Assembly: GCF_026571515.1 (NCBI RefSeq)
Contig: NW_026861937.1
Coordinates: forward strand, 1-64,000
Length of the DNA stretch: 64,000 bases
Reading direction: 5' to 3'
From: Ruditapes philippinarum
Lineage: Eukaryota
A program made the translations under genes and the position numbers. How positions within the stretch are numbered: position 1 is the stretch's first letter; each line of letters starts with the position of its first letter. Of this stretch, positions 5,719-62,216 are shown piece by piece. The notes below the pieces were generated by a model that did not search any database, was not told the origin of the DNA, and was given only the letters and a program-made list of their open reading frames with translations.

Positions 5719-5741
5719 TACCAAAATCATTAAGACAGGAC

Positions 5742-7607: not shown

Positions 7608-9701
7608 ATGTCGACCATACCAGATTACGCTCACAATTTGTCACTTCTAATGTCTCAAGTGATGGATATGATTGGTGTAAACGAGAAGATAGTGATGAAA
7701 AGAAGAAGATCAATGCTACTGAATGAATCACTATTTACGATAACTCGACATCTACTCGGTAGGGAAGGGAATGCGTTCATCTTCGGTAGTCAAATAGAAG
7801 GTACAACAACTCTAGGATTACAGTCTGACACAGATTGTCTTATATCTATGAACAAATTTAATGTGATACAAGACTGGAGTGAATGGGAATATGGTAAACA
7901 TAATTTGTTGATGATACAAGATGAGTATGTCTCACCAGGATATTGTTTGTTACAAATATTAAGAGATGATGCTCCACTACCACACGTAGATGAAGTTAAT
8001 GACCATTCATATAGAGACAGAATGGGGAGAATATTGTTAAAAAATACATTCTTAAATAATTTTGGAAATAATGAATTTATAAGACACGGTCCAGCCCATT
8101 CACAACAAGATGTTCCTGGGGTCAGTGATAATGATTATGTTTTTGCCTTTCCCTGTCATTTAAGACCAATTCAAGCAGGGCATTGGTTAAATCAACATAG
8201 AGAAGAGCATTGGCCTACAAATGATATGATACAGTACTGTAGTAACACGCGATGTTTTGTTGTTGGCGTAGGAAAAACAGGAAGTGTAAATGAAATACTT
8301 GAATGGAGAACATCAACACCATTTGCAGAGAGATTTTTAATGTTTAATCTAAACATAACACAAATTCGATGTTTTGTTTTGATGAAAATGATTTTGAAAA
8401 CATTTGTAACTCAAAGATTTCCTGACAGCATTTCAAGTTTCATGTGTAAAACCGTTTTGATACATTGTATTTCATATACAAGATCTGACGCATGGGAGGA
8501 AAATTCCCTCTTTACCTGTCTATCATTTTGTTTATCAACACTTTACAACTGTGCTCAAAATGAATATTGTCCCCATTTCTTCATCACACAAAATAATTTG
8601 ATGAGCGGACGATATTCTCCGGAATTGAAACCGTTAATACTTGAAACTCTCCGTTATGTAATCGAAAGTAATGGAAGGGCATTGCTTCAAATTGAATGTG
8701 ACAACTTTGGTTTATATCTTCAGCCAAGTTTATATGGTTTTCCACCAATAAATCCACATTTTATACCAACTATCATTGCTGGGCAAATACAAAAATATAC
8801 TGCCTGTGATATAAGCTCACAATTTCTGTTAAGTTTAATGAACGATTTGTCACCAAGACTTGCGATGCAAAAACTTTTAACATTTATGTCATATCACCAT
8901 ATTGAGAATTACACAAACATAGATAGAAAAGCTTACCGTTTGATAGCACGATATTTATGTAGTACACTTGGATCTATTCTAGCATCTTTAAATATTTACC
9001 AACAAGACCATTTAACATACAAAAAGGCTCTTTCATTCCTGTCATTAGGACTTGACTCCGATGTAGCATCTGGTAAACTGAAACTAGCATCTGTTTTCTA
9101 TTGTACCGGAGATATTGAGAGGACTGAAATTATCCTGAAAAATATTGAGGAGTGTTATGATCTAAGTGTTGTTGAACCAGTGTGTGGGTGTTACATTTTT
9201 AAAATGTCACCACGAAGAGATAAATTCAACAGATTATGTTATCAATCAAATGAAGAATGCACACTGCTTAAATATATAACAGCATCATGTGTCTATTTTA
9301 TACGATGTGAAATAAACTGTTGTCCACTAGAACTTCAACATGAAATGTTTAGATCAACACAGGAAGATCTTGCTTACAGAAGTGAAAAAGATAAATGGAT
9401 GAATATGGCTGTTGTAGATTCTCTCCCTTACCTCTACTTCTTGCAGTACAAGACATATTCCCGACTTGGAAGACAAGATGATAAACAGAGGGCTCTCAAT
9501 AACATTGCCAGAACCATGGATGTTGAACCAAATCTCGGACATAGGGACACAGCACTCAATCTTCTCGGCCAATGTATGGAAGAAGAGAATAATCTAGAAA
9601 ATGCTTTCAAATGTTATGCGCGTTCCCTTCAGATAAGAGGACGAAATAATTCGGCAAAAATCCATATTTGTAAGCTGTTACACAAATTGATCAATAATTA
9701 G
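7608..9701 (+). CDS. cGAS-like receptor (cGLR, Mab-21 nucleotidyltransferase) with Cys-rich/TPR-like C-terminus, copy 1, 697 aa, type-A tail
   Basis: NTase signature FGSQIEGTTTLGLQSDTD with third acidic residue in DNDYV. Mab-21 motifs WP, VGVG, EWRxSxxFAER, LMK, SSFMCKT and CPHFFITQNNL. TPR-like ALNLLGQCMEEENNLENAFKCYARSLQI. Confidence 0.9.
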   Translation: MSTIPDYAHNLSLLMSQVMDMIGVNEKIVMKRRRSMLLNESLFTITRHLLGREGNAFIFGSQIEGTTTLGLQSDTDCLISMNKFNVIQDWSEWEYGKHNLLMIQDEYVSPGYCLLQILRDDAPLPHVDEVNDHSYRDRMGRILLKNTFLNNFGNNEFIRHGPAHSQQDVPGVSDNDYVFAFPCHLRPIQAGHWLNQHREEHWPTNDMIQYCSNTRCFVVGVGKTGSVNEILEWRTSTPFAERFLMFNLNITQIRCFVLMKMILKTFVTQRFPDSISSFMCKTVLIHCISYTRSDAWEENSLFTCLSFCLSTLYNCAQNEYCPHFFITQNNLMSGRYSPELKPLILETLRYVIESNGRALLQIECDNFGLYLQPSLYGFPPINPHFIPTIIAGQIQKYTACDISSQFLLSLMNDLSPRLAMQKLLTFMSYHHIENYTNIDRKAYRLIARYLCSTLGSILASLNIYQQDHLTYKKALSFLSLGLDSDVASGKLKLASVFYCTGDIERTEIILKNIEECYDLSVVEPVCGCYIFKMSPRRDKFNRLCYQSNEECTLLKYITASCVYFIRCEINCCPLELQHEMFRSTQEDLAYRSEKDKWMNMAVVDSLPYLYFLQYKTYSRLGRQDDKQRALNNIARTMDVEPNLGHRDTALNLLGQCMEEENNLENAFKCYARSLQIRGRNNSAKIHICKLLHKLINN

Positions 9702-15457: not shown

Positions 15458-17554
15458 ATGTCGAGGATACCAGACTACTCTCCTAATTTATCACTTAAAA
15501 TGTCTCAAGTGATGCATGGACTTGGTGTAAATGAGAAGATAGTGATGAAAAGAAGAAGATCATGGCTACTGAATGAATCAATATTAACGTTAATTCAACA
15601 ACTTCTCGGTCATGATAGAAATGGGTTCTTCTTTGGTAGTCAAATAGAAGGTACAACAACTCTTGGATTACGGTCTGACACGGATTTTCTTGAATCTTTA
15701 AACAATATTAATGTGATACCAGACTTGAATGAATGGGAATATTGTAAACATAATTTGTTGATGATACAAGATATTAATGTCTCACCAGGATATTGTTTGT
15801 TACAAATATTACAAGATGATGCTCCACTACCACAAGAAGTCAAAGTTAATGACCATTCCTACAGAGACAGAATGGGGAGAATATTGTTAAAAAATACATA
15901 TTCTTATGGATTGGGAAATAGTGAATTAATAATTAGGAACGGCCCGGCTCATTCTGTACAAGATGTCCCTGGGGCCAAAGATAGTGATTTAGTTATTGCC
16001 TTTCCTTGTAAATTAAGACCAGTTCAAGCAGCGCATTGGTTAAATCAACATAGAGAAGAGCATTGGCCTACAAATGATATGATACAGTACTGTAGTAACA
16101 CGAAATGTTTTGTTGTAGGCGTTGGTAAAACAGGAAGTGTAAATGAAGCATTTGAATGGAGAATATCTACATCATTTGCAGAGAGATGTTTAATGTTTAA
16201 TCTTAACATAACACAAATCAGGTGTTATGTTTTGATGAAAATGATTTTGAAAACATTTATAAATCAAAGATTTCCCGACAGCATTTCAAGTTTCATGTGT
16301 AAAACAGTTTTGTTACATTGCATTTCATGTACAAGATCTGGTGCATGGAACGAAAAAGCCCTCTTAACTTGTCTATCATTTTGTTTATCAACACTTTACA
16401 ACTGTGTTCATCAAGAATACTGTCCTCATTTCTTCATCACACAAAATAACTTGATGGGTGGGCGATTTACACCGGAGACTAAGTCGTTAATACTTGAAAC
16501 TCTTCGATATGTAATCGAAAGTAATGGAAGGGCATTGCTCGAAATTGAATGTGACTGCCTTGGCTTATGTCTTCAGTCAAATTTAAACGGTATTGAACAT
16601 TTTGTACCACCTATAATTTCTGGGCAATTACTAAGAGAAACAGCCCTTCATATAAGTTCAGATTTCAAAGATATCTTATGTGAAATGAATCATTTATCAC
16701 ATCAACCCACGATGCAAAAAATTTTAACAATTATTTCAAATTACCATAATGACAATTTCACAAACATAGATAGAAAAGCTTACCGTTTGATAACATGGTA
16801 TTTATGTAGTACACTTGGATCTGTTCTAGCATCTTTAAACATTAACCAACATGACCATTTTACATACAATAAGGCACTTGAATTCATGGCATTAGGATTT
16901 AACTCCGATGTAGCATCTGGTAAACTGAAACTTGCATCTTTCTTCTATTGTGACGGAGATATTGAGAGGACTGAAATGATCTTGAACAAAACTGAGGAAT
17001 GTTATGATGTTAGTATCGTTGAACCAGTATGTGAGTGTTATAATTTCGAACAGGCAAAAAGAAGAGACAGATTTGACAGGAACTGTTTTGAATCAAATGA
17101 AGAATGCTCTCTGTTTAAATATATAATAGCATCATGTGTCCGGTTTATACGATGTGAAATAAACTGTTGTCCATTAGAACTTCAACATGAAATGTTTAGA
17201 TCAACACAGGAAGACTTTGCTTACAGAAGTGAAGATGATGAATGGATGGACATGGCTGTTGTAGATTCTCTCCCTTACCTCTATTTCATGCAGTACAAGA
17301 CATATTCCCGTCTAGGAAGACAAGATGATAAACAGAGGGCCCTCTCTAATATTGCTAGAACAATTGATGTTGAACCAAATCTCGGACATAGGGAAACAGC
17401 ACTCAATCTTCTAGGACATTGTATGGAAGAAGAGAATAATGTAGAAAATGCATTGAAATGTTATGCGCGTTCCCTTCAGATTAGAGGGAGAAATAATTCG
17501 GCAAAAGTCCATATTTGTAAGCTGTTAAACAAATTGATCAATAACTTGTTGTAA
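15458..17554 (+). CDS. cGLR copy 2, 698 aa, type-A tail followed by a silent in-frame type-B module
   Basis: FGSQIEGTTTLGLRSDTD, DSDLV, EWRISTSFAER, SSFMCKT. Start set at the ATG homologous to the paralogs rather than 15392. Confidence 0.9.
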   Translation: MSRIPDYSPNLSLKMSQVMHGLGVNEKIVMKRRRSWLLNESILTLIQQLLGHDRNGFFFGSQIEGTTTLGLRSDTDFLESLNNINVIPDLNEWEYCKHNLLMIQDINVSPGYCLLQILQDDAPLPQEVKVNDHSYRDRMGRILLKNTYSYGLGNSELIIRNGPAHSVQDVPGAKDSDLVIAFPCKLRPVQAAHWLNQHREEHWPTNDMIQYCSNTKCFVVGVGKTGSVNEAFEWRISTSFAERCLMFNLNITQIRCYVLMKMILKTFINQRFPDSISSFMCKTVLLHCISCTRSGAWNEKALLTCLSFCLSTLYNCVHQEYCPHFFITQNNLMGGRFTPETKSLILETLRYVIESNGRALLEIECDCLGLCLQSNLNGIEHFVPPIISGQLLRETALHISSDFKDILCEMNHLSHQPTMQKILTIISNYHNDNFTNIDRKAYRLITWYLCSTLGSVLASLNINQHDHFTYNKALEFMALGFNSDVASGKLKLASFFYCDGDIERTEMILNKTEECYDVSIVEPVCECYNFEQAKRRDRFDRNCFESNEECSLFKYIIASCVRFIRCEINCCPLELQHEMFRSTQEDFAYRSEDDEWMDMAVVDSLPYLYFMQYKTYSRLGRQDDKQRALSNIARTIDVEPNLGHRETALNLLGHCMEEENNVENALKCYARSLQIRGRNNSAKVHICKLLNKLINNLL

Positions 17555-18734: not shown

Positions 18735-21540
18735 AGACTGGCCTGTCTTTACATTCGTGGCAAAAGCTGACCACTTTCGATTTCAGCAGGCTGGCTAAGC
18801 TCTATACTTGTGGTAGAGGCTGACAACTTTCGGTTTCAGCAGGCTGGCCAGACTCTATACTTGTGGTAGAGGCTGATCACTTTCGATTTCAGCAGACTGG
18901 TCAGGCTCTATACTTGTGGTAAAGGCTGACTATTTTCGGTTACAGTTTGCTTGCCTGGTTCTATACTTGTGGCAGAGGCTGATTACTTTCGGTTTCAGCA
19001 GGTTGACCTTACTCTACACTTGTGGTAGAGGGTGACCAATTTCAGTTTCAGCAGGCTGGTCAGGCTCTTTTATTGTGGTAAATGCTAACCACTTTCGAAT
19101 TCAGCAGTCTGGCCTGGTTCTATACTTGTGGCAAAGGCTGACCACTTTCGGGTTCAGGGGGCTGACCTTGCTCCATACTTGTGGCAAAGGATGACTAATT
19201 TCGGTTTTAGCAGGCTGGCCAGGCCCTATACTTGTGCCAAAAATTGACAACTTTCGGTTTCAGCAGGCTGGGCTGGCTCGATACTAGCGGCAAAGGCTGA
19301 CTACATACGGTTTCATCAGGCTGGCTTGGTTCTATACTTGTGACAAAGGCTGATCACTTTCGATTTCAGTAGACTGGCCAGGTTCTATTCTTGTAGGAGA
19401 GGCTGACCACTTTCGGTTTCAGCAGGCTGGCAAGGCTCTATACTTGTGGTAAAGGATGACCACTTTCGGTATCAGCAGGCTGGCCAGGCTCTATACTTGT
19501 AGCAGAAGCTGACCACTTTCGATTTTAGCGGGTTTGTCAGGCCTTATAATTGTGGTATAGGCTGACCACTTTTGGTTTCAGCAGGCTGGCCTGGCTCTAT
19601 ACTTGTGGTTAAGGCTGACAACTTTCCGTTTTAGCAGTTTGGCCATATCTATTCTTGTAGCAGAGGCTGACAACTTTCGGTTTCAGCAGGCTCGTCAGGC
19701 TTTGAAATTGTGGTAAAGGCTGACCACTTTCGGTTTCAGCAGGCTGGCCAGGCTCTTTACTTGTGGCAGAGGCTGACCACTTTCGGTTTCAGCAGGCTGG
19801 TCAGGCTTTTGATTGTGATAAAGGCTGACGACTTTCCATTTCAGTAGGCTGGCTAGATTCTATACTTGTGGCAGAGGCTGAGCACTTTCGGTATCAGCAA
19901 GCTGACCAGGCTTTATACTTGTGGTAACGGCTGACCTCTTTCAGTTTCAGCAGGTTGGCCAGGCTCTCTACTTGTGGCAAAGGCTGACAACTTTTGGTTT
20001 CAGCAGATTGACCTGGTTCTTTAACAGTTGCAAAGAATGACCAATTCCCATCTCTTATTTAAACAGGCTGACTTGGCTCTTTACTGGTGGTAAAGGCTGA
20101 TAACCTTCGTTTTCAGCAGGCTGGTCAGGCCTTATACTTGTTGCAGAGGGTGACCACTTTCGGCTTCAGCAGGCTGGCCAGGCTCCATATTAGTGGCAAA
20201 GGCTGACTCCTTTCGGTTTCAGCAGACTGACCTGGGTCCATTCTAATGGCAAAGGCTGACTACCTTCGGTTTCAGCAGGCTGGCCTGGCTCCATAGTAGT
20301 GGCAAAGGATACCTATCTTTGGTTTCAGCAGGTTGGCTGGCCCCATATAAATGGGAAAGGCTGGACTATCTTGTTTAGCAGCAGGCTGGCCTGGTCCTAC
20401 TTGGGAAAGATATTATTTTGGTTTCAGCAGGCTGGCCAGGCTTTTATACTTGTGGCAAAATTGACTACTTTCGGTTTCGGCAGGCTCCCCGGTCGATATA
20501 GAGGGAAAGGGTGACTACTTTCGGTTTCAGCAAAGGGTGCCCGGCTCCTTTCTAGGGAGCAAAGGGTGACACTTTTCAGTGGATCAGGCTGGCCTGGTTC
20601 TATACTTGTGGCAATGGCTGACCATTTTCGATTTCAGTAGCTAGGCTGGCCAGGCTCTATACATGTTGCAGAGGCTGACCACTTTCGGTTTCAGCACGCT
20701 GGCAAGGCTCTATACTTGTGGTCAAGGATGACCACGTTCGGTTTCAGCAGGCTGGCCACTCTCTAAACTTGTAGCAGAGGCTGACCAATTTCGGTTTCAG
20801 CAGGCTGGTCAGGCCTTATATTTGTGGTACAGGCTGGCCCACTTTTGGTTTCAGCAGGGCTGGCCCAGGATCTATACTTGTGTAAAGCCGGCAACTTCGG
20901 TCTCAGCAGGCGGCCAGGCTCTTATATACTTGTAGGGCAGAGACTGGACCACTTTCGGTTTCAGCAGCCTGTCCTGTTCTATACTATTAGCAAAGGCAGA
21001 CACTTTCAATTTCAGCAGACTGCCAGGCTCTAATTATACTTGTGGTAAAGGCCGCAACTTTCGGTTTCAGCAGGCGGCCAGGATCATATACTTGTGGTAA
21101 AAGGGCCGGCAACTTTCGGTCTCAGCAGGCTGGCCAGGCTCTATACTTGTTAGCAGAGACTGACCACTTTCAGGTTTCCAGCAGCCTGTCCTTGTTCTAT
21201 ACTTAGCAAAGGCAGACACTTTCAATTTCAGCAGACTGCCAGGCTCTAATATACTTGTGGCACGAGGCTGACCACTGTTGGTCTCAGCAGGCTGGTACAG
21301 GGGCTTTTTAATTGGGAAAAGGCTTATCCACTTTCGATTATAGTAGGCCTGGCAAGGTTCTATAAACTTGTGGCAGAGGTCATTCCTTATTCAAAGCAGA
21401 ATGACTTGCTCCCTTTACTGGTGGTAAAGGCTGGATCACATTCGCTTTTCAGCAGGGCGGGTCAGACTTTTATACTTGTTGGGGCGTTGAGTGACCTTTT
21501 TTTTTTTTTCAGCATGGGCGGGGGGGTGGCTGGGGTTTTA
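18735..21540 (+). repeat. 53-bp minisatellite array 1 (~53 units) with ISRE-like core
   Basis: Consensus GGCAAAGGCTGACCACTTTCGGTTTCAGCAGGCTGGCCAGGCTCTATACTTGT; period verified at 18781/18834/18887. The array is noisy after ~20300. Confidence 0.95.
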
Positions 21541-22970: not shown

Positions 22971-25101
22971 ATGCGAGATACCAGATTACGCTCACAATTA
23001 CTTAAAAAATGTTTCAAGTGAGAGATGGGACTTGGTTTAACGAGAAGATAGTGATTTGAAAAGAAGAAGATCCCAGCTACTGAATGAAAATCACTAATGA
23101 CGGGTTAACTCATCAGGCTACCGGTTGAAGATAAATAAATTTTTTCAAACTTTGGTAGTCAAATAGAACGTATACCAACAACTCTTCGGATTACAGTCTT
23201 GACGCAGATAGTCTTATACTCTATAAACAAATTTAATGTGATACAAGACTGGAGTGAATGGGAATATGGTAAGCACAATTTGTTGATGATACAAGGATGA
23301 AAATGTCTCTCCAGGATATTGTTTTTTACAAAAGTTTAAGAGATGAGTGCAGCCACTTACCGCTCCTAGTTGAAACTTGATAAATACATACCCAGGGAAG
23401 GGAATGGGGAGAATAATTGTTAAAAAATACAAAGTTTTTAATGTTTTACCTAAATTAGTACAAATGGCCCTGCTCATTCTTTTCAGATGTTCCTGGAGTC
23501 GAGGATAATGATATCGTTCCTCCTTTTCCATGTTAATAAGGACATTCCAGTTAGGCATTGTTAATTCAAATAGAGAAGAGCGTTTGGCCTCCAATTGATA
23601 TATACATACTGCACAGCAACACCACGAATGTTTTCTGTTGGTGTTGGAAAAAACAGGGGAGTGTAAAGGGAAGCATTTGAATGGAGAATATCTTCATCAT
23701 TTGCCAGTGAGGATTTTAATGTTTTTAATCTTAAATAACCACAAATTAGAAATTTTATGGGTGTTTGATGAAAATGATTTTGAAAAAACATTTTTATAAC
23801 TCAAACATTTCCGACAGCATTTCAAGTTTCATGTGTAAAACGTTTTTGTTACATTGTATTTATATACAGATCTGGTGCAATAGGAAGGAAAATATCCTTT
23901 TTACTTGTCGTATCATTTTGTTTATCAACACTTTACAGTGTGGTTCAAATGAATATTGTCCTCATTTCTTCATAACACAGAACAACTTGATGAGCGGGAG
24001 ATTTTTCTCGGAAACGAAGTCCGTTGATACTTGAGACTCTTCGTTATGAATCGAAAGTAATGGGAGGGCATTACTCGAAATTGAATACGATCTCCTTGTG
24101 GTTTATTTCTTCAGTCAAGTTTAAGCGGCATTGAACTAATAGATGCACATTTTATACCAACTTTATGTGCTGGGAAGTTTTCTAATTGAACTAGCGCTTA
24201 ATATAAATTGTGAAATTTCAAAAAATATATCTTAGGTGAAATGAATAATTTATCACATAGACCTACGATACAAAAACTTTTAACATTGATGACACATCAC
24301 CAAAATGCAAATTTTACAAACATAGATAGAAAAGCTTACCGTTTGATAACACGATATTTATGTAGTACACTTGGATCTATTCTAGCATCTTCAAACATTT
24401 ACCAACTAGACTATTTAACATACAAGAAGGCACTTGAATTCATGTCATTAGGACTTGACTCCGATGCAGCATTTGGTAAACTGAAACTAGCATCTTTCTT
24501 CTATTGTACCGGAGATATTGAGAGGACTGAAATTATCCTGAAACATATTGAGGAGTGTTATGATCTAAGTGTTGTTGAACCAGTGTGTGGGTGTTACTCT
24601 TTTGAAAAAGCTCCAATAAGAGAAAGTTTCAACAGATTATGTTATGAATCAAATGAAGAATGCACACTGCTTAAATATATAACAGCATCATGTGTCTGTT
24701 TTATACGATGTGAAATAAACTGTTGTCCATTTGAACTTCAACATGAAATGTTTAGATCAACACAGGAAGACCTTGCTTACAGAAGTGAAGATGATACATG
24801 GATAAATATGGCTGTGGTAGATTATCTCCCTTACCTCTATTTCATGCAGTACAATACATATTCCCGTCTAGGAAGACAAGATGATAAACAGAGGGCTCTA
24901 TCAAATCTGGCCAGAACCATTGATGTTGAACCAAATCTCGGACATAAGGAAACAGCACTCAACCTTCTCGGACAGTGTATGGAACAAGAATATCGCAAGG
25001 ACGATGCTTTGAAATGCTTTCTGATGTCCTTAAAGATACGAAGTAGGCATAATGCTGCAAAGTTTCATATATTTAGATTGTTAGCGTCATTTAATAATTA
25101 G
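22971..25101 (+). pseudogene. cGLR copy 3: 5' half heavily frameshifted (pseudogene or low-quality assembly), 3' 286 codons intact, type-B tail
   Basis: Collinear homology to paralogs from the ATG at 22971. The fragments ISSFMCKT and EYCPHFFITQNNL are present, and ORF 24241-25101 is clean, ending MEQEYRKDDALKCFLMSLKIRSRHNAAKFHIFRLLASFNN. Confidence 0.85.
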
Positions 25102-26569: not shown

Positions 26570-26880
26570 TGTGCAGGGTAGCCTAACTCTATACTTGTAG
26601 CGGAGCTGACCTCTTTCAATTTCAGCTGGCTTCCCTTTGTTCTATCTGTTGGAAAAAATGATCACACTCATAAAAAAGGGTTTGGGCCTGGCCTTACGGG
26701 TCAAAGGCTGTTTAAAATTTTTGGGTTTCAGCGGGCACCGGGCTCCAACGGGGGCGAAGGGCTGTCACATTAGAGTTTTCAGCAGGCTGCGTGGCTCTGT
26801 TCTGGTGAAACAGGCTAATCACATCCGATAACAGCGAGCTGGCCTGGTTATATACTGATGACAAAGGTTGATCACTTCGA
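26570..26880 (+). repeat. 53-bp minisatellite array 2 (~6 degraded units)
   Basis: Follows the same CACCACGGATGTGCAG entry sequence; degenerate GCTGA..TTTC..TTTCAGC units. Confidence 0.7.
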
Positions 26881-27637
26881 CGGTAAGGGTTAGATAGCAT
26901 TTGAACTTAAACAGTGTAAAAGCCGTTGTAACGAAGAAATATGACCCGTGTTAAATAAAGGTTACCTTATTTCATAAAATACACAGGTACTAACTCGACT
27001 AGACTACCTTCGAAGAAAAATCCTTTCCCTGAGAAAGCTGTTGAGTATTCACCCAGTCAATCTCGAACTGACTTTTAACAGAGAAAGCTGCTGCTGTTGT
27101 CATAACATAAGTGTTGTGTTCTGTATGCATTTTATGTATGCATATGACAAATAAACAAGACTTTAGGCTCGAACTCATGATCTCTAGGTTGGGGATGTCA
27201 TAATACTTTGACCGGTATGTCATTATATTAAAACTAAGTAGTTTATATATTTATAAAAGGATAATGATCGGGTGTGTTAATTTCATGATGTTCTCTTTTC
27301 TTCTTACATACAAAGCAATGGTTGGGAAAGGTATTGAAAGGTTTGTCATCCTATATGTACAAACTTACTAGACGTCCACTTTCCCAGGCCCTCTGCAAAA
27401 ATATGTTTAATAACAGAGAAATGTTATATTTAAACTCTTCCTAGAAACCACCATTACAGTATGTAAACAACATATCATCATATTTGTTTCGTCTATAAAT
27501 TTTGTTTAAATGTGCATTGAATATAGTCTTTCAACCTTTGACCTTTTACTTCATGAGCATTTTGTGAAACAAATGGCTGTTTTCATTGAAAAACCTCCTG
27601 TTACAAGTTTAAACTGCTATGAAACTATGAAAAATGA

Positions 27638-27840
27638 CATTGATGTTGAGCCAAATCTTGGACATCTGGAAACAGCATTCAACCATTAAAGACAGTTCAT
27701 GGAAGAAAAAAATAAAAACAAAATGCTTTCAAGTATTATGCGCTTTCGCGTCAGATAAGAAAACGAAATAATTCGGCAAAACAAATTGATCAATCATTAG
27801 TATTCAATAATTTTGCAAGAGAAATATCTTTGTATCATCT
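27638..27840 (+). pseudogene. 3' remnant of an eighth cGLR gene (type-A tail plus copy 1/6-type 3' flank)
   Basis: ATTGATGTTGAGCCAAATCTTGGACAT (IDVEPNLGH)...CGAAATAATTCGGCAAAA...AAATTGATCAATCATTAGTATTCA. Downstream, 28670-29350 matches the copy-1 flank at 12200-12860. Confidence 0.8.
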
Positions 27841-36500: not shown

Positions 36501-37839
36501 AACATTATGATGAGCAAATGAAGTTTAAAGCGATTTTTGTTAAAAGACGAGAATAAAGATCAACAAGGCAAAGGCAACGATAACAGTACCAGCTCCTGAC
36601 ACACCCAAGCCACCACAGCAGGGCACCCAGAAGGCACAAAACCGGAAGTGGACATAAGGGCGGCGAAGAGAGGAGATAGACAAGTTATGTGAGCTTATTA
36701 TAAAAAAACTACAAAAAACTGGAACGGGCCCATATGGGAACCAAAGCGACAAGGGCTATAACGGAGGGGGTATTTGAACACGTATGGCGACAAATTAAGC
36801 CTGAGGACTTCGTGAGCCTCCAAAATCAAGATTTTGGCCGTATACATACTACGTGTACATGTCATAATTGTTATGTTTTTGTTTAAATTTGCAATTCAAC
36901 GTTTGAATAGGCATTCAATATAATTAATCAAGATCATAGAAGGCGGCTTATGCCTGACCAGATGAATAGGGGGTAATTTATTTCAGACAGGCATGTCTGA
37001 GAGGTAGGTTGTCTGCACTCTTAAATGTTTTCCTCTGTTAAATCAATAGGAATAAAATGAAACCGTTTCAAAATTAAAAGAATTGTAGCAGATACACTCA
37101 GTAAATGTCGTTCTAGGTGTACAACTCTTGCATAATACCGATATATTGTCGATTCAGTCCAGTGATATTGTTTCCGGGAAGCTACTTACTTCATTACGAA
37201 ATAGCTTGCAGAAAACAATACAACTACGAGAACAATAATACAATAAGTAATATTATGATGCTGGTGTGAATGCTACATGTCCTCACAAAAATAAAATTCT
37301 TTTTTTTTGTAACATAAAAAAACTGTCATAAATGAAATGTTCTTCATGGACGTGATATTATATTTTTGCATATTTTCCAGGCATCTCATAACATTTTGCT
37401 TGTACAACCACAGAATGATATAAACTTTTTCTTGTTTCGTTGGTCACATCATACTTATCTGAGTAATTTGATACAAAAATGATGACTGCCAAATTGAACA
37501 AAATATAATATTACGTAACGAATTAAGTTTACATCTAGTAAAGTTATTTATAATAAAAGCTTTAAAGACTTGTCAAAATGATAAGTAACACTCTTTTTAA
37601 TCCGGTTTCTCTGATAAAAGTTCAAAATAAAATATATGTATAAGTAAGAAATAAAATGTCTACATGTCTACAGTCTATGTATAAGAAATATTTTTGAAGC
37701 CTGTCAAACAATTATAATTTCATGCTATAAAATACCCACCATAGAGGATTATTTCTTTTCCATTGTCTGTGTATAAAGAGGATTTATATTTAGTACTTTG
37801 TTGATTTACTATTTAGTACTATTCAACCTGTCTTATTTA

Positions 37840-41560: not shown

Positions 41561-43555
41561 CTGGCCTGGCTTTATACTTATGACAAAGGCTGACAACTTT
41601 CGGTTTCTGCAAGCTGGCCTGGCTCTATACCTATAGCAAAGGCTAACAACTTTCGGTTTCAACAAGCTGGCCTGACTTTATACTTATGGCAAAGGCTGGT
41701 CACTGTCAGTTTCAGCAAACTGGTCTGGCTCTATACTTATGGCAAAGGCTGGCAACTTTCGGTTTCTGCAAGCTGGCCTGGCTCTATACCTATAGCAAAG
41801 GCTAACAACTTTCGGTTTCAACAAGCTGGCCTGACTCTATACTTATGGCAAAGGCTGGTCACTGTCAGTTTCAGCAAACTGGCCTGGTTCTTTACTTGTG
41901 GCAAAGGCTGACAACTTTCAGTTTCAGCAAGCTGGCTTGACTCTATACTTATGGCAAAGGCTGACAACTTTCGGTTTCGGCAAGCTGGTCTGACTCTGTA
42001 CTTATGACAAAGGCTGATCACTTCCGGTTTCAGAAAACTGGCCTGGCTCCATACTTATGGCAAAGGCTGACAACTTTCGGTTTAAACAAGCTGGTCTGAC
42101 TCTATACTTATGGCAAAGGCTGACAACTTTCGGTTTCAGCAAGCCGGTCTGACTCTATATTTATGGCAATGGCTGATCACTTTCGGTTTCAGCAAGCTGG
42201 CCTGGCTCTATTATTATAACAAAGGCTGTCAACTTTCGGTTTCAGCAAACTGGTCTGGCTCAAAGGCTGACAATTTTCGGTTTCAGCAAGCTGGCCTGGC
42301 TCTATACTTATGGCAAAGGCTGACAACTTTCGGTTTCAGCAAGCCGGTCTGACTCTATGCTTATGGCTTAGTCTAATCACTTTCGGTTTCAGCAAGCTGA
42401 CCTGGCTCAAAGGCTGACAATTTTCGGTTTCAGCAAGCTGGCCTGGCTCTATACTGGTGGCAGAGGCTGACAACTTTCGATTTAGGCAATCTGGCCTGCC
42501 TATACTTATGGCAAAGGCTGACAACTATCGGTTTCAGCAAACTTGTCTTAATCTATACTTATGGCAAAGGCTGACAACTTTCAGTTTCAGCAACCTGGCC
42601 CGATTCTATACTTATGGCAAAGGCTGATCACTTTCGGTTTCAGCAAACTTGCCTAACTCTATACTAATGGCAAAGACTGACAACTTTCGGTTTCAACAGG
42701 CATGCCTGGTTCTATGCCTGTGGCAAAGGCTGATAACTTGCGGTTCCGATGGGCTGGCCTGGTTCTATATGTGCGGTAAGTACTGATCATTTTCGGTTTC
42801 TGAAAGCTGGACTGGCTCTTTACTTGTGGCAAAGGCTAATCACTTTCGGTTTCAGGAGGCTAGCCTGCCTTTATACTGGTTGCAAAGGCTGATCATTTTC
42901 TGTTTCAGGAGGCTAGCCTGCCTTTATACTGGTGGTAAAGACTGATCACTTTCTGTTTCAGGAGGCTAGCCTGCCTTTATACTGGTGGTAAAGGCTGATC
43001 ACATTCGTTTTCAGGAGGCTAGCCTGCCTTATATACTGGTGGTAAAGGCTGATCACTTTCGGTTTCAGGAGGCTAGACTGCCTTTATACTGGTTGCAAAG
43101 GCTGATCACATTCGTTTTCAGGAGGCTAGACTGCCTTATATACTGGTTGTAAAGGCTGATCACTATCGGTTTCAGCAGGCTGGACTGGCTCTTTACTGTT
43201 TGCAATAACTGATCACTTTTTTTTTTTGAAAAGTCAAACCTGGCTCTATCGTAATGTAAATAATTCATCACTTTTGGTTTTGACTAAAGGTTGGACTGGC
43301 TCTTTACTGGTGGCAATAAGTGATCACTTTTTGTTTCAGAAGGCTTGTCTGTCTCTTTCTAAATGGCAATGGCTAATCTATTGCGGTTTCAGCACGCTGT
43401 CGTGACTCAATACTGGTGGCAAAGGCTGGTAACACTTGATTTCAGCAGGATGACTTGTTTCAATACTATTAGAAAAAGCTGATCACTTTCGGTTTCCACA
43501 GGTGGGCATGCCTCTATCCTGGTGAAAAAGGTGGATCACTTTTGGCTTTAGTAGG
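41561..43555 (+). repeat. 53-bp minisatellite array 4 (~37 units, with internal variant subfamilies)
   Basis: Same period and core as array 1. A 159-bp (3x53) duplication is visible at 41607/41766. Confidence 0.95.
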
Positions 43556-49469: not shown

Positions 49470-49495
49470 TTGGAAATTCCAACTTTCGATTTCGT
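49470..49495 (+). promoter_or_regulatory. Composite NF-kB + IRF motif, copy 6
   Basis: TTGGAAATTCCAACTTTCGATTTCGT, plus a second partial ACTTTCGATTT at ~49504. Confidence 0.6.
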
Positions 49496-49757: not shown

Positions 49758-51851
49758 ATGTCGAGAATACCAGATTACGCTCACAATTTGTCACTTAGAA
49801 TGTCTCAAGTGATGGATGGGATTGGTGTTAGTGAAAAGATAATGATGAAAAGAAGAAGATTAATGCTACTGAATGAATCACTATTTACGTTAACTCATCA
49901 GCTTCTCGGTAAAGATAGGAATGTGTTCTTTTTCGGTAGTCAAATAGAAGGTACAACAACTATAGGATTAAATTCTGACTTAGATTGCCTTATATCTATG
50001 AACAATTATAATGTGATACAAGACTGGAGTGAATGGGAATATGGTAAACATAATTTGTTGATGATACAAGATGAGTATGTCTCACCAGGGTATTGTTTGT
50101 TACAAGAGTTAAGAGATGATGCTCCATTACCACTCGTAGTTGAAGTTAATGACAATTCATATAGGGACAGAATGGGGAGAATATTGTTAAAAAATACAAT
50201 GTTTAATGTTTTAGAAAATGCAGTAAGAAACGGTCCTGCTCAATCTGTTCGAGATGTTCCTGGAGTCGAAGATAATGATTACGTTCTTGCCTTTCCTTGT
50301 CACGAAAGACCAGTTCAAGCAGGGCATTGGCTAAATCAACATAGAGAAGAGCATTGGCCAACAAATGATATAGTACAGTACTGTAGAAACACGCGATGTT
50401 TTGTTGTTGGCGTTGGAAAATCAGGAAGTGTAAATGAACTACTTGAATGGAGAATATCCACATCATTTGCAGAGAGATATTTAATGTTTAATCTTAACAT
50501 AACACAAATCAGATGTTATGTTTTGATGAAAATGATTTTGAAAACATTTATAACTCTAAGATTTCCCGACAACATTTCAAGTTTCATGTGTAAAACAGTT
50601 TTGTTACATTGTATTTCATATACTAGATCTGACGCATGGAAAGAAATTACCCTCTTTATTTGTCTATCATTTTGTTTATCAACACTGTACAACTGTGTTC
50701 AAAATGAATACTGTCCTCATTTCTTCATCACACAAAACAACTTGATGAGTGGACGTTTTCTCCCGGAAACAAAGCCGTTAATACTTGAAAATCTTCGATA
50801 TGTAATCGAAAGTGATGGAAGGGCATTACTTGAAATTAAATGCGACAACATTGATAAATATCTACAGTCCAGTTTAAATGGTTTTGAACCAATTCATCCA
50901 CATTTTATACCAACTCTCATTGCCGGGCAATTACTAAAATATATTACCCGTGATATAAGCTCATTCTTCAAATGTCTGTTAAGTGAAATGAACGATTTGT
51001 CACCAAGACTTGCGATGCAAAAACTTTTAACATTTATGTCATATCACCATATTGAGAATTACACAAACATAGATAGAAAAGCTTACCGTTTGATAACACG
51101 ATATTTATGTAGTTCACGTGGGTCTATTCTATCATCTTCAAATATTAACCAACAAGACCATTTAACATACAAAAAGGCTCTTGAATTCCTGTCATTAGGA
51201 CTTGACTCCGATGTAGCATCTGGTAAACTGAAACTAGCATCTTTTTTCTATTGTACCGGAGATATTGAGAGGACTGAACTTATCCTGAAAAATATTGAGG
51301 AGTGTTATGATTTAAGTGTTGTTGAACCGATATGTTGGTGTTACAGTTTCAAACACTATTCAATAAGAGACAAATTCAAAGGATTATGTTATGAATCAAA
51401 CGAAGAATGCAGACTGTTTAAACATATAACAGCATCATGTGTCTATTTTATACGATGTGAAAGAAACTGTTGTCCATTAGAACTTCAACATGAAATGTTT
51501 AGATCAACACAGGAAGACCATGCTTACAGAAGTAGAGATGATAAATGGATGAACATGGCTGTTGTAGATTCTCTCCCTTACCTCTACTTCTTGCAGTACA
51601 AGACATATTCCCGACTAGGAAGACAAGATGATAAACAGAGGGCTCTCAATAACATTGCCAGAACCATGGATGTTGAACCAAATCTCGGACATAGGGACAC
51701 AGCACTCAATCTTCTCGGCCAGTGTATGGAAGAAGAGAATAATATAGAAAATGCTTTCAAATGTTATGCGCGTTCCCTTCAGATAAGAGGACGAAATAAT
51801 TCGGCAAAATTCCATATTTGTAAGCTGTTACACAAATTGATCAATAACTAG
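49758..51851 (+). CDS. cGLR copy 6, 697 aa, type-A tail
   Basis: FGSQIEGTTTIGLNSDLD, DNDYV, EWRISTSFAER, SSFMCKT. The C-terminal ~90 aa are nearly identical to copy 1. Confidence 0.9.
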   Translation: MSRIPDYAHNLSLRMSQVMDGIGVSEKIMMKRRRLMLLNESLFTLTHQLLGKDRNVFFFGSQIEGTTTIGLNSDLDCLISMNNYNVIQDWSEWEYGKHNLLMIQDEYVSPGYCLLQELRDDAPLPLVVEVNDNSYRDRMGRILLKNTMFNVLENAVRNGPAQSVRDVPGVEDNDYVLAFPCHERPVQAGHWLNQHREEHWPTNDIVQYCRNTRCFVVGVGKSGSVNELLEWRISTSFAERYLMFNLNITQIRCYVLMKMILKTFITLRFPDNISSFMCKTVLLHCISYTRSDAWKEITLFICLSFCLSTLYNCVQNEYCPHFFITQNNLMSGRFLPETKPLILENLRYVIESDGRALLEIKCDNIDKYLQSSLNGFEPIHPHFIPTLIAGQLLKYITRDISSFFKCLLSEMNDLSPRLAMQKLLTFMSYHHIENYTNIDRKAYRLITRYLCSSRGSILSSSNINQQDHLTYKKALEFLSLGLDSDVASGKLKLASFFYCTGDIERTELILKNIEECYDLSVVEPICWCYSFKHYSIRDKFKGLCYESNEECRLFKHITASCVYFIRCERNCCPLELQHEMFRSTQEDHAYRSRDDKWMNMAVVDSLPYLYFLQYKTYSRLGRQDDKQRALNNIARTMDVEPNLGHRDTALNLLGQCMEEENNIENAFKCYARSLQIRGRNNSAKFHICKLLHKLINN

Positions 51852-57199: not shown

Positions 57200-59827
57200 T
57201 TAAGAGGGCTTAATGGTATTGTGGATAGTGTTATATATACTCGTATACATGTATCTATCTTAAATAACATACACGAAAGATATCCGTTTTATATCATTTT
57301 TTTGATTAATCCTACTTTCTTTTTTCTGTACTTACCTACCTACCAACTCACCTGTCACACTTTACACAGATTTTCTTTACCTTACTTAATTAACTAATTT
57401 AAATACCGTAACTAACTAACTAATTTACTATTATAATAGTATTATTGTGCTTTCCTTGCTGCTTGTCTGCATATTATTATTTATTCTCATATGTGTTGAA
57501 TATATGTACTTGTACCGTACATGTTGTTTAAATATCTATGTAATTTATACCGAAATTAATCTATTTATCTATGGAAAAATGCCAAGTGTCTGTTTACTTA
57601 AAACTTCACTGATATCGGTGAATAAAACATGTCAAAAACAATTTCACAAACTTGTGATAAATGATTTTGATTATACAGAATGTTTGCTTAAGATTCATTA
57701 CGAACATTTATAAAGGAAGTCAAAGAAACCCAATGCACTTAATGTGAGTTTAAAGCAATACATTCCTTTTTTTAACGCAGTTATCTTTTTGAAAAACATT
57801 CGTAATCCATCGCAATTGCTATGCTAAATGACGTCGATATTTTCTAGAAAAGGTCCATAAACTGATAGATGAGCTAAAACTATGTAAATGTTTAATTTTA
57901 TATGTGTTTTGAAAATTAAAATATTTATAAACTTTATATTGTTCCAAATGGGAATATTTTACACATTCGTTACCAAAATTAAGTACTTTTGACAAGACCT
58001 TCAAGTATATCAGAATAAACTTAACCTTTTTTATTCATACATGACCATGACCTTCAGTGTCAAATTTTTCAGTTTGCTTGAAATTATTTTCTATAACAGA
58101 CTTAAGCTTTCATATTTATAGATGGGTTGTCTTTGTACTTGGAAACAATAAATGAATAAAACAAAAAACAACAAAAAAAAAACGTAGTTTATTTTAACTT
58201 TTATTTGACCTTGACATTTTAGGTCAAAAAGTGAATTTCGATGAACTGACCAAGTCTTATTTGTGGATTTGATTTGTGATTGAACTAAGAACATTTAAAA
58301 TATAGTGTTATGCATCTTATAAGTGTGCAAATATGACACCACACCGGGGTCACTTATTTGTATATGAAAATATATTTAAGTCGCTTTTGTTTTTCTCAGC
58401 TGTTTGAATGGACACTGCTGTGAATTTTTGATATTCTACTTATTGTATTAATTTTGTATTCAAACACTTTCTTGCGAGATTTCAGATCATTTTTACACCC
58501 TCAATTTCCAGACGTATCTTTTGTTTTGTTACAACGATTCAAAAATCAAAAAGCATTTAGAGTAAAGGTTAGTGATACATGTAAGAATTTACAAATTAAA
58601 AGTGGTCAAGAACGGCGCAACATTAATCAATTAAGTGGTTAATATCATTTTTATAAACTGTCGATTAATAACACTGATTAAATTTAGCCGATTTACCAAA
58701 ATAAAGATGAGCAGGAGCATTTGAACCCAAATTAAGTTTAAAGCGTTTTGCTATAATCATGCAAGGGATTTCTTTATTTTAACACGTATGGAGACAGATT
58801 TAAGAACGAGGACTTCGTGAACCTTGAAAATCAAGATGTTGGCGGAATGCATACAAAGTATGTTTTCATGTATGAATTTATGTGCTTTTGTTTAAATTTG
58901 CAATTTAACGTTTTAAAATGCAATTCGATATAATTAATCAACATCATAGAAGGCGGCTTATGTCTGACGAGCTAAATATGGGAGTATTAATGTTGCATAC
59001 AGGCATGTCTCAGTGGCAGGTTGTCTGCGCCTTTGTGTGTGTCTCACAGTTAAATAAAACTCTTGCACATAACAGATATATTGTTGAGTCGGTCCGGCGA
59101 TATAGTTTCCGGGAAAGTATGCCTAATTTATTAAGAAACAGCTTGCAGGAATATACGAGAACAATAACACAATAAGGAATATATCACGTGATGCTGGTAT
59201 GAATGCTAGCCGTCCTGACAAATAAGAGACGAAATAAGCTATATTGTGAAATAAAAGAAAAATGTCGTCATAAATGAGACATTGTTCTTAGACATGATAT
59301 TTTAGTATTACATAATTTTTATTTTCCATGCATCTCATAACATTTAATTTGTAGAACCACAGAACGATTTATTGAACTTTTTTCTAGCTTCATTGTTCAC
59401 ATCATACTTATATGAGTAATCCAAGAATGATCACTACCAAATTTGACAAAATGTATTATTACCAATGAAGTGTAGTTAAATTATTTATAATAAAATCATT
59501 AAAGATCTGAATTCTTTGTCAAAATGATAAGAATCATTTTAATTTAATTGTTTTTTTATATGAAAGTTCAAAGTAAAATACATGTATAAGTAAGAGAAAT
59601 ATTTAAGAAATAGATTTGAAGTCTCTTTATTTTTAGCATCCAACAATTATAATTTCATCCTCTGAAAATAGCCACCATAGAGCGATTATTACTTTTGAAT
59701 TGTCTATATAAGGTTAAGTTAACAAGTAAGATTTAATTTACAAGTAAGGTTTAATTTCACCTAAATTTAGTACTTTATTGATTCATTATTTAGTATCATT
59801 CAACCTGTCCAATTAAGGTGTAAAGCA

Positions 59828-59853
59828 TTGGAAATTCCAACTTTCGTTTTCGT
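59828..59853 (+). promoter_or_regulatory. Composite NF-kB + IRF motif, copy 7
   Basis: TTGGAAATTCCAACTTTCGTTTTCGT, followed by an AAG|GTAAAT donor at 59876. Confidence 0.6.
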
Positions 59854-60116: not shown

Positions 60117-62216
60117 ATGTCGAGAATACCAGATTACGCTCACAATTTATCACCTAAAATGTCTCAAGTGATGGATGGGATTGGTGTTAACGAGAAGATA
60201 GTGATGAAAAGAAGAAGAGCAATGCTACTGAATGAATCACTATTTACGTTACCTCATCAGCTACTCGGTAATGATAAGAATATATTCTTATTCGGCAGTC
60301 AAATAGAAGGTTCTACAACACTAGGATTAAAGTCTGACACAGATTGTCTTATATCTGTGAACATCTATAATGTGATACAAGACTGGAGTGAATGGGAATA
60401 TGGTAAACGTAATTTGTTAATGATACAAGATGAGTATGTCTCACCAGGATATTGTTTGTTACAAATTCTTAGAGATGATGCTCCACTACCAGAAGTAGCT
60501 GAAGTTGATGACAATTCATATAGAGACAGAATGGGGAGAATATTGTTGAATAATACATTTTTAAATGATGTTGGAATTAATGAATTTATTAGACACGGCC
60601 CAGCCCATTCTATACAAGATGTTCCTGGTGTCAGTGATGATGATTTTGTTTTTGCCTTTCCCTGTCATTTAAGACCAGTTCAAGCACGGCACTGGTTAAA
60701 TCAGCATAGAGAGGAGCAATGGCCTACAAATGGTATGATAAAGTACTGTAGTAACACGCAATGTTTTGTTGTTGGAGTTGGGAAAACAGGAAGTGTAAAT
60801 GAAGCGTTTGAATGGAGAATATCCACATCAATTGCGGAGAGATATTTAATGTTTAATCTTAACATAACACAAATTAGATGTTATGTTTTGATGAAAATGA
60901 TCTTGAAAACATTTATAACTCAAAGAATTCCCGACAGCATTTCAAGTTTCATGTGTAAAACAATTTTGTTACATTGTATTTCATTTACAAGATCTGATAC
61001 GTGGAAGGAAAATACTCTCTTTAGTTGTCTATCATTTTGTTTATCAACACTTTACAACTGTGTTCAGAATGAATTCTGTCCTCATTTTTTCATCACACAA
61101 AATAACTTGATGAACGGGCGAATTTCTCCGGAAGCGAAGCCGTTAATACTTGAAATTCTTCGTTATGTGATCGAAAGTAATGGAAGGGCATTACTCGAAA
61201 TTGAATGTGACAACTATGGTTCATATCTACAATTAAGATTAAACGGTTTTATACTACAAAATGCCCATTATATTCCCACTATAATTGCTGGGACATTACT
61301 AAGAGAAACAGCCTCTCACATAAGCGCAAATATCAATCATCTGTTATGTGACATGAATGATTTATCACCAAGACATGCGATGGAAAAACTTTTAACAATC
61401 ATTTCAAATCATCCTAATGACAATTTCACAAACATAGATAGAAAAGCTTATCGTTTCTATACAAAATATTTATGTAATACACTAGGATCTGTTCTAGCGT
61501 CTTTAAACATTAACCAACAAGACCATTTAATTTACAAAAAGGCACTTTCGTTCATGTCATTAGGACTAGACTCCGATGTAGCATCTGGTAAACTGAAACT
61601 AGCATCAATGCTCTTTTGTGCCGGAGAAATTGAGATGACTGAACTGGTCCTGAAAAATATCGAGGAGTGTTATAATCTTAGTGTTGTTGAACCAATATGT
61701 GAGTGTTATGTTTTTAAACAGCCTTTACGAAGAAAAATATTCGACAGATTATGCTTTGAATCAAATGAAGAATGCACACTGCTAAAACATATAACAGCAT
61801 CATGTGTCTGTTTTATACGATGTGAAATAAACTGTTGCCCATTCGAACTTCAACATGAAATGTTTAGATCAACACAGGAAGACCTTGCTTACAGAAGTGA
61901 AGATGATAAATGGATGGACATGGCTGTTGTAGATTCTCTCCCTTACCTCTATTTCTTGCAGTACAAGACATATTCCCGTCTAGGAAGACAAGATGATAAA
62001 CAGAGGGCTCTCTCTAACATTGCCAGAACCATTGATGTTGAACCAAATCTCGGACACAGGGAAACAGCACTCAATCTTCTAGGACAGTGTATGGAAGAAG
62101 AGAATAATGTAGAAAATGCTTTTAAATATTATGCGCGTTCCCTTCAGATAAGAAGACGAAATAATTCGGCAAAAGTCCATATTTGTAAGCTGTTAAACAA
62201 ATTGATCAATAACTAG
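60117..62216 (+). CDS. cGLR copy 7, 699 aa, type-A tail followed by an open in-frame 44-codon type-B module
   Basis: FGSQIEGSTTLGLKSDTD, DDDFV, EWRISTSIAER, SSFMCKT, CPHFFITQNNL, TPR-like tail. Confidence 0.9.
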   Translation: MSRIPDYAHNLSPKMSQVMDGIGVNEKIVMKRRRAMLLNESLFTLPHQLLGNDKNIFLFGSQIEGSTTLGLKSDTDCLISVNIYNVIQDWSEWEYGKRNLLMIQDEYVSPGYCLLQILRDDAPLPEVAEVDDNSYRDRMGRILLNNTFLNDVGINEFIRHGPAHSIQDVPGVSDDDFVFAFPCHLRPVQARHWLNQHREEQWPTNGMIKYCSNTQCFVVGVGKTGSVNEAFEWRISTSIAERYLMFNLNITQIRCYVLMKMILKTFITQRIPDSISSFMCKTILLHCISFTRSDTWKENTLFSCLSFCLSTLYNCVQNEFCPHFFITQNNLMNGRISPEAKPLILEILRYVIESNGRALLEIECDNYGSYLQLRLNGFILQNAHYIPTIIAGTLLRETASHISANINHLLCDMNDLSPRHAMEKLLTIISNHPNDNFTNIDRKAYRFYTKYLCNTLGSVLASLNINQQDHLIYKKALSFMSLGLDSDVASGKLKLASMLFCAGEIEMTELVLKNIEECYNLSVVEPICECYVFKQPLRRKIFDRLCFESNEECTLLKHITASCVCFIRCEINCCPFELQHEMFRSTQEDLAYRSEDDKWMDMAVVDSLPYLYFLQYKTYSRLGRQDDKQRALSNIARTIDVEPNLGHRETALNLLGQCMEEENNVENAFKYYARSLQIRRRNNSAKVHICKLLNKLINN

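Follow-up and report, generated by a model that had tools for sequence, protein, structure and literature searches.

A tandem array of cGAS-like receptor genes in Ruditapes philippinarum with a helical C-terminal half predicted to dock on the spine helix

The first 64,000 nucleotides of contig NW_026861937.1 of the bivalve Ruditapes philippinarum (assembly GCF_026571515.1; this whole stretch is hereafter called the window) carry a tandem array of cGAS-like receptor (cGLR) genes, comprising six uninterrupted open reading frames (ORFs) for proteins of 697-699 aa, a frameshifted copy and a C-terminal remnant, all on the plus strand. The N-terminal half of these proteins has, almost certainly, the cGAS fold with an intact catalytic site, and the C-terminal half is a helical domain predicted to dock on the spine helix, the element with which cGAS grips DNA. 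Comparison of the paralogs further supports diversifying selection at about 30 sites, many of them near the junction between the nucleotidyltransferase (NTase) and the C-terminal half. We propose that the helical half is a built-in, paralog-specific sensor lid on an enzyme that likely makes a cyclic dinucleotide.

Neither the family nor its expansion is new. Li et al. 2023 reported more than 200 cGLRs in some bivalves, Mercenaria having 247 together with 9 STINGs, and described some fusions to tetratricopeptide repeats (TPR) (PMC9980059). The cGLR expansion in bivalves that an earlier reading of the window (hereafter, the sequence-only reading) had invoked is therefore correct and previously known. 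Four of the six searched locus ids of Mercenaria relatives (53-60% identity) are present in Table S1 of Li et al., so that both the family and its radiation in bivalves were already known; the three relatives that were looked up in Table S2 have a Mab-21 annotation only, that is, the C-terminal half went unrecognized there. New are the predicted docking of the helical half on the spine, the selection at ~30 sites, and a minisatellite carrying interferon-stimulated response elements (ISREs). The available text of Li et al. does not treat lid docking, selection or regulation, and the literature searched, mostly outside subscription journals, yielded nothing on this architecture, its selection or an ISRE minisatellite at cGLR genes. 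According to Li et al., what cGLR biology chiefly lacks is the identity of the non-nucleic-acid ligands, and they give no explanation for the 200-gene radiations in bivalves (PMC9980059). The cluster offers a testable answer to this gap, namely, a lid on the ligand groove and a short list of selected residues among paralogs that are 74-85% identical; the prediction is that removal or loosening of the lid changes the activity.

Catalytic core, fold and distribution of the family

All six intact copies contain G60-S61, D74-x-D76 and D176, exactly as quoted in the sequence-only reading; of the 120 aligned family members, 116 retain the full catalytic set, and all 120 have K260 and K281. For the genes as a whole, dN/dS is 0.51. 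The Pfam Mab-21_C domain was detected above the curated cut-off in six of six copies, and a profile search of the PDB retrieved Sp-cGLR1 (8gjy, E = 4.5e-29). An AlphaFold model, made for the first copy, g1, from an alignment of 120 sequences, reached a predicted local distance difference test (pLDDT) score of 95.5 and a predicted template modeling (pTM) score of 0.94 at full length. Residues 12-369 of this model match human cGAS with Z = 27.3 (root mean square deviation, rmsd, 3.5 over 309 aligned residues), and the model matches MB21D2 and Cv-cGLR1 with Z = 25.6 and 25.4, respectively; in Foldseek, the g1 model matched cGAS/cGLR structures with E = 9.5e-11 and a target TM of 0.64. The cGLR assignment made in the sequence-only reading, which had proposed HMMER with Pfam models and AlphaFold with Foldseek as checks, thus holds by each of these routes, and the cGAS/cGLR fold covers the N-terminal ~370 aa of the g1 model. 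From their motifs, the copies are likely to be enzymatically active.

Li et al. delineate cGLRs by a G[S/G] loop with an acidic triad, by homology over the NTase core and the C-terminal helix bundle, and by predicted structure; all three features were found here, the last one for g1. Their written motif, h[QT]GS-X8-20-[DE]h[DE]h-X50-90-h[DE]h (PMC9980059), is not matched to the letter, because in the window copies GS is preceded by F and the third Asp comes only after ~99 residues, the spacing in the family being mostly 97-103 residues compared with the published 50-90. Given that Table S1 lists Mercenaria relatives of the same layout, this pattern apparently was not applied literally. The bivalve cGLRs of Li et al. 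share the fold and the catalytic triad with the window copies (PMC9980059).

In the family profile, there is a gap where cGAS has its Zn-ribbon segment, and the isoelectric point (pI) of the NTase is 5.7-8.2 in the six window copies and above 8.5 in only 22 of the 120 members, the value reported for cGLRs that sense nucleic acids being >8.5 (PMC9980059). Accordingly, classification as cGAS proper, which we considered, was rejected on account of the Zn-ribbon gap and the low pI. Like cGAS and the oyster proteins Cv-cGLR1 and Cg-cGLR1, the window copies have a caged NTase core, but where those enzymes possess an open basic spine groove for double-stranded DNA (dsDNA), the groove of this family is predicted to be occupied, the domain is near-neutral and the Zn-ribbon segment is absent. 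A close precedent is human MB21D2 (PDB 7lt1; PMC8410604), an orphan cGLR that likewise lacks the Zn-ribbon and places a C-terminal helix on the spine; however, MB21D2 has a single helix as its extension, whereas the window family has a predicted 317-aa TPR-like solenoid with an insert and is large and rapidly diversifying.

The search for relatives passed 330 of 5276 candidates, and the best 120 of these 330 constitute the family set used throughout; among the matches listed, the closest named relatives come from Ruditapes philippinarum itself (up to 84% identity) and Mercenaria mercenaria. A profile of the six copies matched 2855 cluster representatives at E <=0.001 and 417 at 1e-30. When 20 of the representatives were looked up, the named ones came from Mercenaria, Mya, Dreissena, Sinanodonta and Potamilus, so that the architecture spans venerid, myid, dreissenid and unionid bivalves. 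With the C-terminal half of a unionid member as the query, six proteins were retrieved, all from the same species, and the ESM Atlas matches were limited to unnamed or Mab-21 mollusc clusters. A quick, unfinished tree of 30 proteins is nearly star-like. In metagenome contigs, the family alignment confirmed no locus among 595 pattern matches, and Rfam gave zero matches. One Mercenaria member, P0133 (LOC123547583), contains an extra trypsin-like peptidase domain at residues 772-968 (E = 1.4e-5, just below the curated cut-off).

The helical half and its predicted position on the spine

Folded alone, the C-terminal half has a pLDDT of 95.7 and consists of helical hairpins with a mixed insert of ~90 residues at ~515-605. 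The best structural matches are mostly solenoids of the TPR type (Z of up to 12.1, rmsd 4.1, 199 of 317 residues aligned), values within the generic range for helical repeats, and a consensus-TPR match extends over the last repeat; it is also over this last repeat only that Pfam TPR models scored best, at 17.2 bits compared with a cut-off of 27. A Foldseek search with the C-terminal half returned nothing at E <=0.001. Of the "Cys-rich/TPR half" described in the sequence-only reading, the TPR part is retained as a prediction: the domain, below the Pfam threshold and with structural matches of generic strength, is called TPR-like rather than TPR proper. The epithet "Cys-rich" had to be dropped, given that the Cys content hardly exceeds that of the NTase (3.7% compared with 3.6% in the N-terminal half among the 120 members; 4.5-4.8% compared with 3.6-4.5% in the six copies). 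The helical-repeat topology is common to TPR solenoids such as TSK/BRU1, OGT, Tom70 and PlcR/Rap, and the match to these is a generic one; the insert, with C526-x-C528, C561, C571, E568 and E579, has no named counterpart among them. C526, C528, C561 and C571 are kept in 69-85% of the 120 members. With position 645 added, the Cys/His residues of g1 at 526, 528, 561, 571 and 645 are conserved in 69-94% of members and could form a metal site.

When the two halves of g1 were modeled as separate chains, the docking score was 0.77, compared with 0.01 for the best of three controls, and the two-chain runs shared at least 35% of their contacts, with a partner pLDDT of at least 81. Among microbial pairs, 51 of 78 solved ones and 2 of 108 mismatched ones attain the mark applied to such scores; for eukaryotic pairs, the corresponding figures are 39 of 65 and 2 of 126. 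Because the halves of one protein tend to pass this test, the informative part is the place of contact. The predicted interface brings residues 20-50, the long second helix of the NTase, against residues 383-409, 426-446 and 545-551. The spine helix and the Zn-ribbon make up the ligand groove of cGAS, and the spine of MB21D2 is touched by its C-terminal helix (Slavik et al., PMC8410604). Two residues of DNA site A in human cGAS, K187 and L195 (PMC9896928), correspond to model residues 37 and 45 (an offset of 150 residues), both of which are in the interface. On the other side, the spine-facing positions of the C-terminal half are mostly hydrophobic in the 120 members (97% at 390, 86% at 394, 87% at 442 and 97% at 446). 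Thus, judging from the models, we are fairly confident that the C-terminal half docks on the spine helix, where cGAS grips DNA.

Several points weigh against this conclusion or against its extension to ligand choice. The docking test measures model confidence on halves of one chain, a type of pair that tends to pass, and the mapping of K187 and L195 presumes no gap between model residues 12 and 45. Furthermore, the spine has a conserved basic stretch, KRRR (31-34), and g4 as a whole is basic (pI 8.5), so that the family might still bind nucleic acid. The copies could then be ordinary nucleic-acid-sensing cGLRs, in which the TPR-like half binds an RNA end, as IFITs do, or scaffolds partners while the basic spine still touches nucleic acid. 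IFIT5 and IFIT1 are found among the weak Foldseek rows for the C-terminal half (E ~0.075); K31, R32 and R33 are occupied by K or R in 64-78% of members, and 9 of the 15 active cGLRs in the published screen respond to dsDNA or dsRNA (PMC9980059). However, K31 and R32 are themselves predicted to lie very near the C-terminal half, as two of its closest contacts, the NTase pI is below 8.5 in all six copies and the Zn-ribbon segment is missing, so we regard a nucleic-acid trigger of this kind as unlikely.

The copies might, alternatively, be effectors, that is, nucleotidyltransferases that modify a pathogen protein or a small molecule caught by the TPR half, rather than second-messenger synthases. 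TPR solenoids often capture protein substrates, the triad spacing exceeds the published range, and the trypsin-like domain of P0133 would fit such a role. The caged cGAS architecture with its invariant K260 and K281 speaks against it, as does the predicted location of the interface on the spine side and not at the catalytic strands, and we consider effector function the least probable of the alternatives for the protein.

Diversifying selection and the proposed sensor mechanism

Among 21 close paralogs, variability is concentrated on one face of helix 385-409, in loop 527-541, at the spine end and at 148-168, and also at alternate positions of the catalytic strands (54/56/58, 75 and 173-179). 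To measure selection on sites chosen independently of the window, the 30 most variable sites were picked from 15 non-window proteins only (codons 1-650) and then measured in the six window copies. At these sites, dN was 0.78 (95% bootstrap interval 0.62-0.95), compared with a dS of 0.25 overall and 0.31 locally; with 20, 45 or 70 sites picked, the ratios were 3.1, 2.7 and 2.2. The null expectation was simulated on this tree by setting omega to 0 or 1, both with uniform rates and with rates that varied among codons; a dN of 0.777 combined with a local ratio of 2.5 was attained in none of the 160 runs with omega <=1. Strong rate variation could produce a high dN by itself, but always together with higher dS. 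These comparisons of coding sequences support diversifying selection at the ~30 sites. The sequence-only reading had suggested that the C-terminal half may detect ligands different from bare nucleic acid, and this suggestion is strengthened by the selection near the junction, by the predicted spine docking and by the non-basic NTase pI; paralog-specific diversification is also hard to reconcile with a sequence-independent ligand such as nucleic acid.

Selection could have diversified the output instead of the input, with a common trigger or only a transcriptional switch, and products that differ for different STINGs. Some of the variable sites (72, 75, 166, 168 and 173-179) belong to the catalytic strands or adjoin them. 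In addition, 9 STING genes are known in Mercenaria, and the products of cGLRs are of several kinds (PMC9980059). Nevertheless, the ten strand positions that face the active site have a dN of 0.014, compared with 0.69 for the back-facing strand positions and 0.79 for the lid helix face (post hoc site sets), which makes diversification of the product, in our estimate, quite improbable.

The proposed mechanism would then run as follows. In each paralog, the intact core likely makes a cyclic dinucleotide, and the TPR-like half, positioned as a lid on the spine, would hold the enzyme off or bar nucleic acid from access. A pathogen-derived protein or small molecule, and not plain dsDNA or dsRNA, could bind a variable patch to which one face of helix 385-409, loop 527-541, the spine end and the rear side of the catalytic strands contribute; binding of this trigger would shift the spine and order the active site, as DNA does in cGAS. 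The product might signal via one of several clam STINGs and, further, via TBK1 and the interferon regulatory factor (IRF). Within this scheme, the cyclic-dinucleotide product, predicted from the catalytic motifs, is probable, and a trigger other than nucleic acid is somewhat less so, although still favored. For the protein mechanism as a whole, namely, a lid, a non-nucleic-acid trigger on the variable patch and an output through cyclic dinucleotides and STING, we put the chances at about even.

A number of observations weigh against selection on a sensor patch. In sliding windows of 40 codons, dN/dS stays at or below 0.92; the test relies on pairwise counts from six sequences of shared history with mosaic ends, and the named structural site sets were chosen after the variability had been seen. 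The variable sites 148-157, 166 and 168 are outside the interface, and it is presumed that the variable sites form a single patch. As for activity, three scallop and oyster proteins of 676-707 aa in the screen of Li et al. (rows 81-83), which are similar in length to the window copies, carry no activity note, and no Mercenaria or Dreissena protein is present in the screen table (PMC9980059).

ISRE minisatellite, upstream blocks and other features of the window

A 53-bp minisatellite, 110 units in total, lies 1.2-1.6 kb behind g2, g3, g4, g5 and g8, inside the co-duplicated flank (Table 1). The consensus of the unit carries GAAACCGAAA, which fits the canonical ISRE consensus GAAANNGAAA (PMC6954429). 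The arrays hold 57 of the 66 ISRE cores in the window, the core is kept in 57 of the 99 fully covered units, and 34 of 100,000 shuffled units contained a core. The motif columns diverge by 7.3%, compared with 17.1% elsewhere and 19% in the spacer (permutation p = 0.012, or 0.003 after dropping 22 units of an error-rich stretch), and the motif mask ranks first among 35 placements.

In addition, a separate block located ~260 bp before the ATG in six of the seven copies, and absent before g2, combines an ISRE with a kB-like word. It is the best-kept 24-bp stretch upstream, with 95% identity compared with 80% for the surrounding 330 bp (five of the seven copies aligned, g2 and g3 left out), and a candidate splice donor follows it by ~20 bases. 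Canonical ISRE cores are thus found near the genes both in the arrays (57) and in the proximal blocks (six of seven copies), as expected of ISRE-driven genes. Further upstream, GAS-type (gamma-activated) sites are intact before g5 (TTCCGGGAA) and g8. The g4 upstream region (29362-29633) has lost the far end of the shared block and, with it, the GAS-type site, and g2 lacks the proximal block; the paralogs may therefore be regulated differently.

Bivalve IRF1 binds the ISRE (PMC13524488), and in oysters poly(I:C) induces cGAS (PMC8218723). In the proposed scheme, IRF would bind both the pre-gene ISRE block and the minisatellites and raise expression of the cluster, closing a feed-forward loop; if the arrays work, an invertebrate would have such an interferon-like loop made out of a minisatellite. 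A similar arrangement is the MORC3-repressed tandem-repeat enhancer of IFNB1, with 45 PU.1 sites (PMC13373173): in both cases, a tandem repeat dense in one immune transcription-factor motif lies beside an immune gene, but the IFNB1 enhancer has PU.1 sites and a demonstrated function, whereas the 53-bp arrays have IRF-type sites, belong to a mollusc, are co-duplicated with each gene and are candidate regulatory elements.

No array is found behind g1 and g7, where the flank is of a different type. The per-array p values are 0.024 and 0.015 and, for the g4 array, 0.14, which is not significant alone. The conservation signal amounts to two C columns and the lack of a dimorphic column, the T columns of the motif being no better kept than non-dimorphic T columns elsewhere; moreover, all arrays descend from one, several motif types were looked for, and a strict kB pattern had zero matches in the window. 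In mouse cells, fewer than 1% of canonical ISREs are IRF3-bound (PMC6954429). All these points count against a regulatory role. The ISRE in the repeat might, then, be incidental, and the minisatellite passively copied with the 3' flank, as suggested by the fixed place of the arrays in the co-duplicated flank, the modest signal from few columns, and the fact that most ISREs are unoccupied in vivo (PMC6954429). Against passive copying stand the rarity of the core among shuffled units, the first rank of the motif mask over a freely varying spacer and the ISRE block as the best-kept upstream sequence. We estimate the chance of passive copying at just short of even, and consider the question of whether the arrays are functional, as judged from the repeats themselves, to be evenly balanced. 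No terminal inverted repeats were found around the arrays, which leaves an origin from a miniature inverted-repeat transposable element (MITE) without support, and a 22-base pattern from the unit had zero matches in metagenome contigs.

Extrapolating from this cluster, clams would run a large, positively selected cGAS-like repertoire, in which the nucleic-acid groove has given way to a variable site, supplied by the fused solenoid, that binds pathogen proteins or metabolites, a system similar to NLRs but with a cyclic-dinucleotide output, and with IRF-site minisatellite enhancers that co-duplicate with the genes. We offer this generalization tentatively and consider it rather doubtful.

Table 1. 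Coordinates of the gene copies, minisatellite arrays and upstream elements in the window
Feature	Coordinates	Strand	Description	Basis
g1	7608..9701	+	intact cGLR with helical C-terminal half, 697 aa (NTase ~10-369, TPR-like half ~381-697)	ORF, Pfam, AlphaFold, fold comparison
g2	15458..17554	+	intact paralog, 698 aa	ORF, Pfam, alignment
g3	22973..25101	+	frameshifted in 5' 1.26 kb, clean 3' 0.86 kb; probably misassembled seventh gene	indel comparison
remnant	27638..27781	+	eighth copy, last TPR-coding part	self-comparison
g4	30326..32422	+	intact paralog, 698 aa	ORF, Pfam, alignment
g5	38122..40218	+	intact paralog, 698 aa; last ~45 aa of a second, divergent type, common to g3	ORF, alignment
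g7	49758..51851	+	intact paralog, 697 aa	ORF, Pfam, alignment
g8	60117..62216	+	intact paralog, 699 aa	ORF, Pfam, alignment
53-bp array behind g2	18740..21480	-	51 units, 23 ISRE cores (GAAANNGAAA on the minus strand); 1.2 kb behind g2, directly before g3 upstream block	
53-bp array behind g3	26590..26900	-	decayed, 4 units, 1 ISRE core	
53-bp array behind g4	33720..34477	-	14 units, 8 ISRE cores	
53-bp array behind g5	41561..43555	-	37 units, 22 ISRE cores	
53-bp array behind g8	63790..64000	-	start of array, 4 units, 3 ISRE cores; window end intervenes	
kB-like + ISRE block	g1 7326..7349; others ~22669-22694, 30030-30053, 37841-37864, 49471-49494, 59829-59852		~260 bp before ATG	
GAS-type site	37172..37180	+	TTCCGGGAA, ~0.95 kb before g5	
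GAS-type site	59107..59115	+	~1.0 kb before g8; altered in g1, g3 and g7, lost in g2	

Self-comparison of the window, which has a GC content of ~32%, shows that kilobases of flank were co-duplicated with the genes; at the protein level, the five other intact copies are 74-85% identical to g1. The inventory of the sequence-only reading, six intact paralogs of ~700 aa, a disrupted copy and a remnant on the same strand, agrees with the six ORFs of ~698 aa, all on the plus strand. A single coding exon, which it had also noted, fits the pyrimidine-rich, acceptor-like site ending in AG that is located 1 base before each ATG. When the N-terminal extension of a RefSeq isoform was mapped to the window in search of a 5' exon, only chance-level matches were obtained. 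Among the sequencing runs listed for the sequence, none is recorded as RNA, which is evidence neither for nor against expression. RefSeq lists clearly different paralogs as isoforms of one locus (P0001/P0011 and P0005/P0010/P0019); either these models were mis-joined, or different coding exons are spliced alternatively to one common 5' exon.

The frameshifted copy, g3, differs from its closest paralog by 45 indels of 1-2 bp in the first 1206 aligned bases, whereas the last 859 contain no such indel; the transition between the two parts is sharp. For comparison, intact gene pairs have 0 and 6 indels in ~2090 bases, and two non-coding comparisons gave 20 indels in 1267 bases and 9 in 1011. The stretch of the window at ~20300-24240 is dense in 1-2 bp indels and homopolymer runs, ends abruptly and is likely an unpolished part of the assembly. 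Because a decaying pseudogene would be expected to be hit along its whole length, we read g3 as an assembly error that, from the indel distribution, probably conceals a seventh intact gene; a confident pseudogene call was rejected given that the indels are confined to the 5' part. Thus, the "disrupted copy" of the sequence-only reading is indeed frameshifted, but the damage is probably that of a badly polished assembly and not of a genuinely broken gene. The ends of g5 and g3 (40080-40218 and 24960-25101) encode a second type of the last TPR segment that is also present in P0018 and P0019; its dS relative to the other copies is near-saturated, and the sequence comparison identifies this divergent end as an old segment exchange.

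A young long terminal repeat (LTR) retrotransposon occupies positions 2544-7281, 330 bp before g1, with 198-bp LTRs that differ at 2 positions, TG...CA ends, a 5-bp target duplication, and reverse transcriptase, RNase H and integrase ORFs in separate frames. The insertion lies between g1 and the distal upstream block of this gene, the expression of which it may change. Between g7 and g8, there is a 146-bp tandem repeat (55125-56090, 6.7 copies) that presumably resembles the transposon-associated satellites of bivalves, and long imperfect palindromes are located between gene units at 34662-34766 (46-nt arms) and 48242-48320.

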